Positions 3,382 through 63,282 of a stretch of DNA of 64,000 nucleotides are shown piece by piece; the stretch's first letter is position 1, and each line of letters opens with the position of its first letter. This DNA comes from a virus (taxonomy: Duplodnaviria > Caudoviricetes), in IMG/VR virus record IMGVR_UViG_3300002098_000034, positions 3,186 to 67,185 of that record, one strand, 5' to 3'. Made by a program: the position numbers and the translations under genes. A model generated the notes under the pieces. That model saw nothing but the letters and a program-made list of their open reading frames with translations, made no database searches and was not told the DNA's origin.

Positions 3382-4262
3382 TAGATTGTTCCAAATGGAT
3401 TAATTTCTGAAAAATCCGTAATTGTGTAAGCAGAGTTAGCAATATATTCATTGTCGTATACCTCTTTATTAGCAGGAGTATTCAGCGGATCAAATGAAGC
3501 TAAGGAGTAAGTTGCTCCGGATCGTTGGCCAATAATTGATTGGGAGTCAATAAACTCACCGGCAATATTGGACACAGAAAGTGTGTTAGAAGAAGGAATC
3601 CAGGATTGTACGATAGCAACAGTAGAAGCATTTGCGTATGTTGAATCTGCTGATTGGTATACGATTTCATTGATGTTGTATGTTCCTGTTCCTGCACCAA
3701 CATTAAGGTGCAATGTGTAAGCAGAATCGGTAACAACAGAATCAATATCTGCAACACCTGTAGTAATAATCTCTTGTGAGTATTTGAATTTCTCCATTTC
3801 CAATTCATAGAAATAAGGAACTTTTCTACCCAACATGAAGAAATCTTTTGTTTGATTAGTAAACTTGATTTCATATAACTCACCGGTGCCATTGAGGAAA
3901 GGGATATAAACTAAATCACCTTCTCTTGGTCTTGTAAAAGTATTTTGTGGAACTCTTTCGGTGAATGACCTTTTGGAAAGAACCACTTGAACTGTATTTT
4001 TAATCTCAAGTCCAAATTTAGAAAAGAATTCTTTCTCACCACCGTACTCTAATGAGTTACTAAGGTACATTTCAATAGGAAATGCCGATTCAAATCGTTT
4101 GACTGGATCTTCACCAAAGAGAAGGTCTCGAGCTGCATCGTTATCGTTGGGTAAGTAATACGCTTCAAATCCTTGAACCTTGATGGATTCTACAATAAGA
4201 TCCTCAATGACTCTTTGTTCAGGCAAACTTCCGTAATTGTTAAAATAGTGATTTGTTCCCAT
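3381..4262 (-). CDS. gp14: Neck protein
   Basis: EQRVIEDLIVESIK..G...YYLP, FSKFGLEI, PREGDLVY motifs; synteny. Confidence 0.92.
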   Translation of the reverse strand: MGTNHYFNNYGSLPEQRVIEDLIVESIKVQGFEAYYLPNDNDAARDLLFGEDPVKRFESAFPIEMYLSNSLEYGGEKEFFSKFGLEIKNTVQVVLSKRSFTERVPQNTFTRPREGDLVYIPFLNGTGELYEIKFTNQTKDFFMLGRKVPYFYELEMEKFKYSQEIITTGVADIDSVVTDSAYTLHLNVGAGTGTYNINEIVYQSADSTYANASTVAIVQSWIPSSNTLSVSNIAGEFIDSQSIIGQRSGATYSLASFDPLNTPANKEVYDNEYIANSAYTITDFSEINPFGTI

Positions 4263-9974: not shown

Positions 9975-12900
9975 TTAGTATGACGGGTACCACTTGGTTG
10001 TAGTTGCGTCATAGAATAAAATTAATGCTTTACCGACTACAGCAGTAGTTGCTAGAGCAATGTTACCTGATGTTCCTGTAGACCACAATCCTGTAGGTAT
10101 CAAAGTAATTTGACCGCCAGCTGCTGATAATGGTGAAGGTGCTGTGATTGTATTTATTGTAGTTGTTCCAGATATAAAAGTAATTGCTGCAGTTGGAGCA
10201 ATCGTAGCAGAACTTGCAATTGTTGGCGCAGCTGCTGATGTTGCTATTGGAGCATTCTGAACAATAGAACCATATAAGTAAGTTGCTGTAGTAGAGCTAT
10301 TACCAATAACAGTAGTGTTGCTTCCTAGACCGACTGCTTGGTAGCCAATTACCATTTCGTTGGTGTTGTTGTTGGCAGAGCCTACAGTTTGATAGCCGAT
10401 GTAGGTGTTGTTAGAGCCTGTGGTGTTGGCGTTAGTTCCTGTTCCATATCCAGCTTGAAATCCGATTGCGGTAAGTCTAGAACCGCTAGTACTTGAATAA
10501 AGAGCAGCTTGACCTAAAACAGCGTTTTGACTTCCTACACATAAATATAATGCTTGATTTCCACAAGCTGTATTAAATTGAGAAGTGCTATTTGTATAAA
10601 GTGCTTGATAACCAAAAGCAGAATTATAAGTACTCGTAGTATTTGAGTATCCAGCTTGATAGCCTACAAATGTTGCTTGTGAGCCAACACTATTACTATA
10701 CCCAGCCTGATAGCCCACCGCCGTATTGCTTGTACCACTTTGTAATGTAGCTACTGGAACTGTAAATCCTGAGCCTGTACCACCAATAGATGCGGCAGGG
10801 GCTGTTAGAACTGTCGTAGTGTCTTTAAAGCCTACACCGTTAGAGGTTAGTGTGACTGAGGTTACTGCACCACCACTTACTACGATTGTTGCCGTTGGAT
10901 AAGTAATTGCAGATGAACCCGACGATAGCGTCATTACGACACCAGTATATGTTCCGTTAGTGTAGCCAGAGCCACCTGTGATTGAGCCAAGTGTTGCTAC
11001 ATTGGTGGTGTTGTTTTGGAGTGCTTGTGTGCCGATTGCGGTAAGGTTTGAAGCTGTGGTGTTGTTGACTAATGCGGAATAACCTATTGCAGTTAAATTA
11101 TCGCCAATTTGATTGTTATATAAAGCAATTCCACCTAAACCAGTATTATTATTACCTGTTGCTGTTGTTCCTACTCCATGCCCTACAAATACATTGTAGT
11201 TGGTTGTTGTTAATGTTTGACCTGCGCTATTCCCCAAGCATACATTTCTAACACCAGAAGTAACTCCTGATAATGCTAAATAGCCAATTCCTATATTATT
11301 TGTGCCTGTTGCAGTTGCATTTAATGCAGCAGCGCCTATGGCAATGTTAGTGATAACACTTCCACCACCTAGACCTACTTTTACTGTGTTAATAGAAGCA
11401 TCGGAGTTAGTTGTTACTACTCCTGAGAAGTAGGCGTTTTTGAATCTGTTTGTAGAGGCAACTCCTAAATCTATTGCGTTGTCCGTATTTGGATATATAG
11501 CCGTGTTACTTAAACTAAAGCGAGTTGTTCCGCTTGTTTGAAAACCTAAGTTTGCACCGTTAATATATAAGTTTCTTAATGAGCCTGTTCCCGCATTTTC
11601 AGATTGAATAACTGCGTTTGTTCCAGACCATCCAACGCTTAATCTCTCGTAATTTGATGCGTCTGTGTAAGTCCCGTAAAGTCTAAAAGTCTGAGTATTA
11701 GTGCCGTTTCTTTGAGCTAGTATATTAGCTGCGTCACGGGCTAAAACTAAATCACCAGACCCAAACTGAATTGTTCCAGATGAGTTTAAAAGACCTAGAT
11801 TTCCATCAGCCCAAAATGTTCCATTACCCCAATAACCTTGCCTAGAACCATTAGCTGTAATTGCTACTTGAATACCATTTTGCAAGAAAAAACCATAATT
11901 TGACACACCTACAGAAAGACTTGGTAGTGTTACGCTTCCATTACTAGCCAACACCTGCCCAACAGGTACATAGACATTGTTTGATGTTACGATTGCACCA
12001 TTTGATGCAACACTTAGTAATGCTACATTACCAACACCACCATTATATAATGTTAATCCATCAGCTGGACCAACCGAGATTCTACCATTACCTGGCATGT
12101 AATCAGTTACAATACCATCGATGTAAGGTCCTGTGTAATTGTTACCCGAATAGAATCCGTTATTAACAACAATCGCACCATTTGTAAACACATTACCAGA
12201 AATACCTACACCACCAGAAACGACTAGAGCACCAGAGCTTGTCGATATACTTGTATTGGTTGATTTGATAGCAACAACACCATTAGCACCAACACGCATT
12301 ACTTCATTTGGTGAGTTTTGTCCATTAGTAGCAAGAACAATATCATTCTGAGTCATTGTTGCTAAAATTAACTGTCCGCCACCAGTCGATGTATTTCCAT
12401 AAACATACAAGTAACCATCATTTGGACCAGTTAATGCAAATCCATTGGGTTGATTATAATGACTTGAGTTGATACCCATATCAATAAAGGTATCATTTGT
12501 TGAACCATTATCCGATGTAACAACAAAATCACCTGATGCATTATTTCCAGAATTAATATTCTGGTGATTAACTTGTGCATATCCATTATAATTTGTTGAA
12601 ACTTGAAATGCTGTCTGTGGTTCAATTGTATAACCAGTAGGAACACCAGCATATAATGCACCAAATCCAGTTAATGTATTACCAAAGAATTGTCCGGTGT
12701 TACCTGAAATAGTAGTATTGATTACATTACCAACAAACGAAATATTACCTACAACATTTAGATTACCATTAATAGTTGTATTACCGGTAACTGTACCACC
12801 AGAAGTAACAAAAGTATAACCTGTATTAGCAGTATTGTATGCACCTTGAATGGATGTATTTTGAGTTACATCAACACCTTGAGTATAGATTGTATTGGCT

Positions 12901-42690: not shown

Positions 42691-42716
42691 CTCAAAACTC
42701 ATAACAAAGTTACTAA

Positions 42717-42743
42717 TCAATCTTCTTCAGCAAGTTTACTGAA
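42717..42743 (-). pseudogene. Orphaned original 3' end of gp32 (FSKLAEED*)
   Basis: ttc agt aaa ctt gct gaa gaa gat tga mirrors gp32 terminus FAKLAEED* at 43432-43458. Confidence 0.75.
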
Positions 42744-42745
42744 TG

Positions 42746-42811
42746 TATAAATAAAGATGTAGTTCACGGCTGGCAGGCCCAACTACTCTAACACTTTAAC
42801 GGAGTATCAGC
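42746..42811 (+). promoter_or_regulatory. Late promoter plus structured leader of GIY-YIG gene
   Basis: TATAAATA 42746-42753; stem GTAGTT/AACTAC; TCTAACA; GGAG SD; CAGC-ATG. Confidence 0.75.
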
Positions 42812-43435
42812 ATGAGTATTTATTCTATCTATTGTGCCACCTGTATTGATACAGGAAAATCATATTATGGATTCGATTCTGCTTGGCCCAAGAGAATTGG
42901 TGACCATAAAAGAGAATCAAAGAAAAAAACTAATAATACAAAATTTTACAATGCCATAAGAAAATATGGTTGGGATAATTTTATTTGGAAGTTAGTATAT
43001 CAATCAAAAGAAGATGTTGAAGTAAAGGATTCACACACTTTGAATATTATGGAACCACATTTCATAAAAGAAAATGATACCTTGATAAATGGTTATAACA
43101 TGACGCCCGGTGGTGAAGGTAAAAGAAAAGGTTCGACCGAAAGTCTAGAAACCAAACGAAAAAAGTCCTTATCTCACACAGGTAAAAAACTTAGTGATAA
43201 TCATATAAAGAATATGGTGGAATCTAGAAAAGGTTATAAACATTCAGAAGAAACAAAACACAAATTAAGAGCTGCCAGATTGGGTAAAGAACCTTATAAT
43301 AAAGGTAAATCTGGTTTACAAATTGCTTGGAATAAAAAAACAGCAACTAGAAAATGTTGCTGTTTAGTGTGTAAAACGGAAGTGGATTATATAAATCTAG
43401 GAAGGTATCATAAACACCTTCCCAAGATTGGTTAG
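42812..43435 (+). mobile_element. Free-standing GIY-YIG homing endonuclease with NUMOD3-type repeats
   Basis: SIYSIY..T....GKSYYG, R...H, FYNAIRKYGW.NF, E..FI, NGYN.T.GG, ETKRKKSLSH.GKKLS..H, HSEETK.KLR. Confidence 0.9.
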
Positions 43436-62495: not shown

Positions 62496-63002
62496 TTACC
62501 CGTGGTTGGCGTACTCACCATGCTGAGTTTCACGAAATTCTTTAACTACTTTTTCTGCTTCTTCTTTTGTTTTAAAAGGTCCAAAATTATACCATTTTCC
62601 AAATTTGCTACATCCGGCAGTCCATCGTTTTCTGGTTTTATGCCAATATACACCTTTTATACCGGATGTATTATTACTATTGATTTTTCTATTATGTTGG
62701 TTTTGTGATTGAGTTACATCTCTTAGATTTTGAATTGTATTATTACTGGTATTTCCATCAATATGATCAACTATTTTTGGTATATAACCATGGTGATACA
62801 TAAAAATTATTCTATGTGTTCTATAACTTTTATAGTTAATTTTCATCACACTATAACCCCGACTATTGATTGTTCCTACAATAGAATTCTTTTTAATTTT
62901 CTCTGAAGGTGAAACTTTCCAATATAGTTGTCCATCACAGTACTCAAAAAGTTCCTGTAATAGTTCTTGGCTTATCGTGAATAGGTTTGAATATATAATC
63001 AT
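62496..63002 (-). mobile_element. Free-standing HNH-AP2 homing endonuclease
   Basis: HRII..YHHG, VDHIDG...NN...NLR.VT..QN..N, NTSG.KGV.W, W.A, G.F.T.EEA. Confidence 0.92.
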
Positions 63003-63068
63003 GCTGGCATCGTCCTATGATGTTAGAGTAGGCAGGGATGGCAATCCCGTGGCCTACACCTATTTATG
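63003..63068 (-). promoter_or_regulatory. Late promoter plus structured leader of HNH gene
   Basis: CATAAATA; stem GTAGG/CCTAC enclosing GGGAT/ATCCC; TCTAACA; AGGA; CAGC-ATG. Confidence 0.75.
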
Positions 63069-63282
63069 CCACGATAATCAATTTACCAATACCTGTGTAT
63101 TCTTCTATCGCATGTTTTAATTGTTTTGATGAAGCTTTGGGAGCTATAAAAACATAGTCCAGTTCAGGATTTACATCATTACTGGAGAGAGTTTGATTCA
63201 AGTATAAGACCGCCTCTTTGGCGTCTAGAAATTCTTTCATACCAGTATTATTAAACAATCTTGGTTTAGCGATATACTTCAT
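63064..63282 (-). CDS. Hypothetical protein
   Basis: ORF; its TAA lies inside the HNH late promoter. Confidence 0.65.
   Translation of the reverse strand: MKYIAKPRLFNNTGMKEFLDAKEAVLYLNQTLSSNDVNPELDYVFIAPKASSKQLKHAIEEYTGIGKLIIVA

Follow-up and report, generated by a model that had tools for sequence, protein, structure and literature searches.

To our knowledge, the selfish genes of large phages are chiefly those of homing endonucleases, and the means by which a phage restrains up to a dozen of them are known to us only for a few genes of T4 and Aeh1, each with a hairpin of its own. In the genes for I-TevI, I-TevII, I-TevIII and segB of T-even phages, and in mobE of Aeh1, a late promoter lies within a hairpin that masks the SD sequence in read-through RNA (PMC2988022). 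Dassa et al. (2009) described conserved hairpins in the 5' UTR, together with a TATAAATA box, before GIY-YIG/Vsr-like genes at 'fractured gene' loci of ocean metagenomes; the endonuclease genes are free-standing, two conserved motifs are complementary within the stem, and the authors took the hairpin to act on translation from the sense strand, as in Aeh1 mobE (PMC2677866). Antisense control of a DNA-cutting enzyme is found in IS10/Tn10, in which facing promoters lie across the translation start of the enzyme's gene and a stably folded antisense RNA of ~69 nt, RNA-OUT, covers the ribosome-binding region of RNA-IN and blocks ribosome binding, an effect that grows with copy number (PMC5006887). 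An RNA antisense to a homing endonuclease gene, CfrI, was detected in cyanophage S-PM2 by Millard et al. (2010); it is ~225 nt long, connects the endonuclease gene to psbA and is not known to have a function (as described in PMC2984593). Finally, the PeSL of T4-like phages are short multi-copy modules of promoter plus stem-loop that border swapped genes (PMC4122927).

The locus studied here carries two copies of a cassette of ~85 bp, laid out as a box NNTAAATA, a hairpin P2, UCUA, a hairpin P3 containing the SD sequence, CAGC-AUG and TATTTAT in codons 2-4. Like the T-even and Aeh1 masks, it combines a TATAAATA box right before a homing endonuclease gene, as found at both copies, with RNA structure around the SD sequence, the late-restricted, low expression of the mask genes being a further likeness. 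However, the masks are single sense-strand hairpins of gene-specific sequence, whereas the cassette is a two-hairpin module with a mirrored box, common to ~150 genes among the matches listed, in which pairing is kept on the other strand. The element of Dassa et al. may be the same as the cassette, the two being compared by description only, although no mirrored box, strand asymmetry or family-wide survey is mentioned in the text of that report (PMC2677866). With IS10 the cassette shares a selfish element with a DNA-cutting enzyme and, as predictions, facing promoters across the start and a folded antisense complement of the SD region. It differs in that its boxes are of the T4 late type, the predicted overlap takes in two hairpins and all ~65 nt of the 5' UTR, a homing endonuclease and not a transposase is carried, and it is known from sequence alone; the two have no sequence relationship. 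CfrI resembles what is proposed for the cassette in being antisense to a homing endonuclease gene of a T4-like phage (PMC2984593), and S-PM2 belongs to the clade nearest the DNA studied here, the gp32 of which is 57% identical to cyanomyovirus gp32. The cassette is like PeSL in the predicted combination of promoter and terminator functions in one small unit; PeSL have early promoters, on one strand, between ordinary genes (PMC4122927), whereas the boxes of the cassette are of the late type, occur on either strand and accompany nuclease genes. No sigma-70-like site was found at copy 1, and a single weak one (9/12) at copy 2 is within the range of shuffled sequences.

Two copies of the cassette in one viral contig

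The window, i.e. the whole stretch of 64,000 nucleotides that was analysed, lies within a 67-kb viral contig of 35% G+C; it encodes a T4-type gp32, the nearest cultured relatives of which are in cyanomyoviruses, at ~57% identity. A first-pass annotation had singled out the leaders of two unrelated homing endonuclease genes as a shared structure, and both were located where it had placed them, with the sequence it had described. When the 64 kb were searched with the covariance model R1, the two copies scored 86 and 84 bits, and no other place exceeded 12.9 bits. The whole leader of copy 1 (42746-42823, + strand) precedes an ORF of 207 aa for a GIY-YIG/NUMOD3 homing endonuclease (42812-43435, + strand), while that of copy 2 (62991-63068, - strand) precedes an ORF of 168 aa for an HNH_3 + AP2 homing endonuclease beginning M-I-I-Y (62496-63002, - strand), the domains being assigned by Pfam. 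In order, both leaders consist of (T/C)ATAAATA, 2 or 4 purine-rich bases, U, GUAG-NN, CAC, a 4-bp stem with its loop, a bulged pyrimidine, NN-CUAC, UCUA, the SD-bearing P3, CAGC-AUG, two bases and TAT(T/A)TAT.

Copy 1 opens with the late-promoter-type box TATAAATA (42746-42753, + strand), which faces the GIY-YIG gene and is followed by AAGA and U. The outer stem of P2 (42759-42786), which both folds and covaries, is formed by GUAGUU (42759-42764) and AACUAC (42781-42786); it encloses CAC (42765-42767), the inner 4-bp stem and loop (42768-42779) and a bulged C (42780). UCUA (42787-42790) leads into P3 (42791-42807), also supported by folding and covariation, which contains the SD sequence GGAG (42801-42804), and CAGC (42808-42811) is directly followed by the ATG at 42812. 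On the opposite strand, ATAAATA (42817-42823, - strand) coincides with codons 2-4 (S-I-Y) of the GIY-YIG gene; this mirrored box is proposed as the candidate promoter of an antisense RNA of ~65-70 nt, predicted from the fold to run from about GCUG to a U-rich tail (42746-42811, - strand). That tail, which follows P2', the counterpart of P2 on the - strand, is the complement of TATAAATA, and GCUG...UAGA lengthens the corresponding P3' to 8 bp in the predicted fold, with the anti-SD sequence as its loop.

Copy 2 has the same organisation on the - strand. Its late-promoter-type box CATAAATA (63068-63061) is followed by GG and U, and then by P2 (63028-63057), in which GUAGGC (63057-63052) pairs with GCCUAC (63033-63028) around CAC (63051-63049), the inner stem-loop (63048-63035) and a bulged U (63034). 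UCUA (63027-63024), P3 (63023-63007, folded, with AGGA at 63016-63013) and CAGC (63006-63003) lead up to the ATG at 63002. The mirrored box is degenerate in this copy (62991-62997, + strand), reading TATATAT in the sense direction and hence ATATATA, not ATAAATA, on the antisense strand. Comparison with the wider family adjusts the initial description at two points: of the supposedly fixed TCTAACA, UCUA is indeed invariant but ACA is the covarying 5' strand of P3, and the module, which had been ended too early, continues into codons 2-4 and finishes in the mirror of the promoter box.

To the left of copy 1, a displaced remnant of the gp32 C-terminus (FSKLAEED and a stop, - strand, ~42714-42745) directly adjoins the box, and therefore the promoter box is the left edge of the inserted cassette. 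The old gp32 terminator (42693-42668) lies behind the antisense tail of copy 1 as a backstop. Right after the present gp32 stop, within the 3' end of the convergent GIY-YIG gene, there are two terminator-like hairpins (43338-43425, - strand). It seems that gp32 has gained both a new terminator and a new C-terminal end from the inserted nuclease gene, and because of these hairpins read-through from gp32 into the leader is probably limited. At copy 2, the upstream ORF (63064-63282) stops on the TAA within the box (63064-63066), and the same is seen in 12 other leaders; with the stop of a co-oriented upstream gene inside the TAAATA of the box, the cassette abuts the preceding gene without a spacer. 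In the window as a whole ATAAATA is rare (30 sites, against 41 +/- 5 in shuffled sequences), and 24 of the 30 sites are on the - strand, a distribution in keeping with avoidance of a functional late-promoter signal at other places and with a location of most late genes on the - strand.

Distribution of the cassette

In IMG/VR, 46 loci matched the exact pattern of the P2 core, and two relaxed scans extended this to at least 141 distinct leaders after chance matches had been removed, or at least 151-161 under looser definitions. The chance matches served as internal controls, because they lacked every other feature of the cassette. Among the 141 matches listed, the box NNTAAATA, which the scans did not force, is present in 135, 2 or 4 nt before U-GUAG (4 nt in 83, 2 nt in 46), upholding the suggestion that a late-promoter box belongs to the element; UCUA, likewise not forced, is kept in 138. 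Other features conserved without having been imposed by the scans are the internal loop of P2, which is CAC in 118 of these 141 listed matches and CGC in 23, the ATG, which directly follows CAGC in 123 of 161 among the matches listed, and the TAT(T/A)TA near CAGC (see below). A covariance model such as the first-pass annotation had called for was built (R1), many further copies were found upstream of endonucleases in phage contigs, and the idea of a portable module heading nuclease genes of unrelated families is borne out by at least 141-161 distinct copies. A scan with R1 of five large IMG/VR genomes detected 3-13 copies in each, including 7 in a complete 236-kb genome and 13 in one of 333 kb, and all five encode a T4-type major capsid protein.

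Nine cultured T4-like phages gave no significant match to R1, namely the cyanophages S-H9-2, S-SCSM1, P-SSM2, S-CREM1, S-PM2 and S-CRM01, the pelagiphage HTVC008M, Aeromonas phage Aeh1 and T4 (best E = 0.6 in T4). Homology to the leaders of Aeh1 mobE or of T4 was rejected on this basis, as was homology to the CfrI region of S-PM2, so that CfrI is not homologous to the cassette. There was no Rfam match at the gathering score in the whole window, and none even at E <= 10 on either strand of 42700-42860; known RNA families, including small ribozymes and preQ1-type elements (considered by eye), were discarded as an identification. Comparison of the leader with 50,697 phage records by BLAST, which has little power with an element of this length, returned noise only. 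When bacterial and archaeal genomes were scanned, real copies appeared only on six freshwater MAG contigs (L297, L298, L300, L301, L303 and L306), and in no isolate. These contigs are binned as freshwater Bacteroidota and Verrucomicrobiota, but their copies are probably mis-binned phage DNA, and the binning is at most a weak hint at hosts.

Nuclease genes and exchange of leaders

The ORFs behind the leader are always those of small nucleases, whether GIY-YIG, one of several HNH types, SegE-like or NUMOD3-only. Across 124 distinct complete ORFs, with a median of 193 aa, Pfam matches were to NUMOD3 (32), HNH_3 (18), GIY-YIG (18) and HNH (6), and further to SegE-type GIY-YIG, AP2 and the DNA-binding modules of I-TevI and I-HmuI; no Vsr-type ORF was present among those collected. 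Clustering of whole ORFs was abandoned because the shared NUMOD3 modules fused all of them into one, and N-terminal domains were clustered instead. This gave a GIY-YIG group of 72, with copy 1 among its members, an HNH group of 22, a third cluster of 11 that may represent the SegE-type GIY-YIG proteins seen in Pfam, an HNH_3/AP2 cluster of three that includes copy 2, and several NUMOD3-only or orphan proteins. As several unrelated N-terminal clusters stand behind the leader, the module is common to unrelated nuclease families. At L021, L032, L210, L231 and L077 the ORF behind the cassette consists of NUMOD3-type DNA-binding repeats only, with no recognisable nuclease domain; such ORFs may be decayed endonucleases, or DNA-binding proteins under the same control module. 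Split-intein ends of the 'fractured gene' kind were not found in the cassette loci, in a weak test by motif search.

The leaders themselves resemble one another more within genomes than between them, the identity of the variable part of P2 being 0.70 and 0.61 respectively. In genome G003, which has eight parsed copies, the outer stem carries GUAGUU in seven and the spacer is near-identical, with different nuclease families behind. On each of two contigs a pair of cassettes with identical P2 precedes different ORFs (L029:515-599 and 3945-4029; L161:9671-9762 and 11892-11983), which points to a leader that was copied or gene-converted within the genome in recent times. The general likeness of leaders within a genome fits an exchange of cassettes among nuclease loci, or their co-adaptation to the genome.

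Covariation, and the strand on which pairing is kept

In alignment A2, comprising 140 distinct sequences and 15 pairs, 92.7% of cells are paired, compared with 73.9% in shuffled alignments and 30-54% with slid partners, and 411 cells have changed on both sides, compared with 117 in the shuffles, although many of the sequences are related and these counts are not independent events. Covariation, originally claimed from two copies, is strong in the family. In the outer stem of P2, four pairs (GUAG/CUAC) are frozen and two covary, the inner stem has four covarying pairs, and P3 has five pairs that directly abut UCUA and CAGC. The compensatory change first noticed in the outer stem is real, the 140 distinct members having GC in 78 and UA in 55 (4 broken) at one pair and UA in 103 and CG in 37 (0 broken) at the other. 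A different pairing put forward at the outset, of UACUC with GAGUA over the SD sequence, can form in copy 1, but GAGU occurs in only 23 of 151 leaders, and this was dropped as a general SD mask. A pseudoknot between the A-rich loop of P3 and TATTTAT was also discarded, the complementarity being no better than that of shuffled loops.

The direction of the pairing was studied with a strand-neutral definition, in which Watson-Crick, G.U and A.C combinations all count as pairs. Over 151 leaders and 18 pairs there are 2369 Watson-Crick, 265 A.C, 31 G.U and 53 other combinations, such that pairing is canonical in 96.9% of cases on the antisense strand and in 88.3% on the sense strand. UCUA and CAGC, both invariant, can pair with each other (C-G, U-A), and an invariant A.C between them on the mRNA is G.U on the antisense strand; in the two natural variants A-U is restored. 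With this invariant pair left out, the variable pairs still include 116 A.C against 31 G.U (binomial p = 9e-13). At positions 1-2 of P3 the 5' side is AC and the 3' partners are exclusively AU (48), GC (32) and GU (24), i.e. the partner changes are transitions only, which preserves pairing on the antisense strand. Similarly, in the CRC loop the middle base is combined with the bulged base as A/C in 80 leaders, G/C in 38, A/U in 33 and G/U in none (Fisher p = 2e-5), and on these counts the two are an additional predicted pair, canonical only on the antisense strand. The 31 G.U cells, which are found at two loop-closing pairs and work only on the sense strand, point in the opposite direction.

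Predicted folding agrees with these counts. On the antisense strand P3' is an 8-bp helix with the anti-SD sequence in its loop, separated from P2' by a single A, and ViennaRNA assigns P3 a probability of 0.87 (median 0.98) on this strand compared with 0.45 on the sense strand. The corresponding MFE values are -19.1 and -13.7 kcal/mol, the antisense fold being better in 98.8% of leaders. Antisense stem-loops under selection, such as an IS10-type system should have, are therefore found by the measures of both canonical pairing and P3 probability. The wobble pattern, as a comparative signal, shows pairing to be maintained on the strand opposite the nuclease gene, which is at odds with the first-pass annotation's reading of the leader as a cis-regulatory fold of the mRNA. 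The strand asymmetry is no proof of an RNA, because G.T wobble is also tolerated in single-stranded DNA.

A mirrored promoter-type box in the first codons

Codons 2-4 contain TATTTAT, of which the promoter core, ATAAATA, is the reverse complement. Among the matches listed, 151 of 161 have TAT(T/A)TA no more than 18 nt from CAGC, and 112 of 161 have it at an offset of 5 nt; the mirrored motif of a candidate facing promoter is thus present in these 151. In copy 1 the motif ATAAATA occurs on both strands, at a distance of 64 bp. Codon 2 has T as its wobble base in 92% of cases, compared with 36% elsewhere in the same ORFs, while the amino acid varies. Within the mirrored box isoleucine is encoded by ATT in 83% of cases and tyrosine by TAT in 92%, against 45% and 74% respectively in the rest of the ORFs. 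Furthermore, 22 leaders have the motif in other reading frames (M-I-F-I, M-Y-L) and still keep it 4-5 nt from CAGC. The codon-2 bias, the codon choice and the retention in other frames rule out a protein-level cause of the M-x-I-Y start and, as far as such patterns of usage can tell, TATTTAT is constrained as nucleotides and not as protein. The cassette thereby explains a start shared by unrelated nucleases: they all begin M-x-I-Y because their first codons also spell a promoter-type box. Conservation of the mirrored box is lower than that of the forward box, with TATATAT in 18 of the 141 matches listed, including copy 2. As TATATAT would be a poor late promoter, copy 2 may not produce an antisense RNA itself, and its antisense promoter is probably weak or dead.

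A possible antisense brake, and other explanations

The best-fitting reading, that the cassette is a terminated cis-antisense RNA unit, restraining the nuclease by means of two facing late promoters, is given about an even chance of being correct. According to this model, the forward late-promoter-type box NATAAATA would drive the nuclease mRNA, which would start at the base of P2, and the mirrored box would be a second late promoter that fires backwards, ~65 bp from the first. T4 late transcripts begin a few bases downstream of the late box. Given such a start, the backward transcript would begin at about GCUG, the base of P3'. An RNA of ~65-75 nt starting near GCUG could then fold into P3', with its anti-SD loop, and P2', the latter forming an intrinsic terminator together with the U-rich complement of the forward box. 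Such an RNA would be the exact complement of the 5' UTR of the nuclease mRNA, SD sequence included, and its pairing with the mRNA would block ribosome binding or trigger decay, keeping the nuclease low. The A.C mismatches would weaken the helices of the mRNA and so leave the SD sequence usable when antisense RNA is absent. The cassette would move with nuclease ORFs of unrelated families and be swapped among them. The promoter, start site and terminator of the antisense RNA are those that we infer from motifs only. Following P2' on the antisense strand are A, the pyrimidine-rich complement of the spacer and UAUUUAU; by pattern matching, at least five U occur in the 8-nt window after P2' in 135 of 151 antisense strands but after P2 in only 1 of 151 sense strands, although the likeness of this tail to a terminator is not independent evidence because it is the complement of the forward box by construction.

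The backward promoter could instead point outwards, driving or restoring an upstream phage gene on the opposite strand, with the fold as the 5' leader or stabiliser of that gene's transcript; there would then be no terminated small RNA, and the nuclease would be damped incidentally, if at all. T4 endonuclease genes do contain promoters for neighbouring genes (PMC2988022), and 71 of 111 classified upstream neighbours of the cassette are on the opposite strand, divergent from the nuclease gene. This seems unlikely, however, given that the other 40 are co-oriented and leave such a promoter nothing to serve, that neither window copy has a gene to serve (copy 1 leads to the old gp32 terminator, and copy 2 runs antisense into an ORF), and that the terminator-like tail after P2' recurs in the 135 leaders mentioned above. 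Somewhat harder to accept is a leader that acts on the sense strand only, with P2 stabilising the mRNA at its 5' end or binding a protein and P3 weakly masking the SD sequence, in which TATTTAT would pair with the promoter box in read-through RNA, as in the masks of T4 I-TevI and Aeh1 mobE. Those precedents are experimentally established (PMC2988022), ATAAATA is complementary to TATTTAT, P2 is predicted on the sense strand too (probability 0.85-0.96), and a co-oriented ORF ends at most 90 nt upstream in 53 of 144 cassettes, with its stop codon inside the box in 12. Nevertheless, a mask of the T4 style, to which the first-pass annotation had likened the leader, is not predicted to form. The helix closing box and TATTTAT has a median probability of 0.002, so that no stable hairpin containing the box and covering the SD sequence or AUG is predicted; the three-way junction that this helix would create on the mRNA lies ~7 kcal/mol above the MFE, its flanking positions are without covariation, and it was rejected. 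In modelling, the region from the SD sequence to the start is unpaired with a probability of 0.44 for read-through and 0.53 for late RNA, two values that are close to each other. Of the cassettes with both neighbours classified, 34 are antisense to both (26 are co-oriented with both) and sense read-through is therefore often impossible, while the tolerance of A.C and avoidance of G.U would be left unexplained.

An explanation at the level of DNA would have hairpins of the bottom strand, single-stranded during replication or recombination, promote the movement or exchange of cassettes in the manner of PeSL, a precedent (PMC4122927). It can accommodate the strand asymmetry, as G.T wobble is tolerated in DNA hairpins, and sits well with the 3-13 copies per genome, with the identical-P2 pairs heading different ORFs in L029 and in L161, and with a leader subtype that tracks the genome and not the ORF family in G003. 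It is nonetheless regarded as very doubtful: expression signals, comprising two promoter-type boxes, the SD sequence and AUG, are in fixed register with the helices, homologous exchange requires sequence identity rather than covarying helices, and no hairpin-using enzyme is linked to the cassette.

Returning to the antisense-RNA model, an extension is that the RNAs act in trans across the 3-13 cassettes of a genome, as a copy-number-dependent brake on all of its homing endonucleases. The core of the predicted RNAs, consisting of GCUG, UAGAGUAG and CUACA, is invariant across all 3-13 cassettes of a genome. Action in trans is an improbable addition to the model but, if true, would amount to multicopy inhibition for homing endonucleases, and would explain both why helices able to covary are frozen and why the leader subtype follows the genome rather than the nuclease family.

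Conclusions

No description of the cassette or of its sequence was found in full-text literature searches. It is a real, widespread and apparently undescribed control element of phage homing endonucleases, and it can be used as an annotation marker of nuclease genes in uncultured phages. If it acts through antisense RNA, a single portable cassette serving unrelated nuclease families would represent a general solution to the problem of nuclease restraint, and would be the first transposon-style antisense brake to be reported for homing endonucleases.
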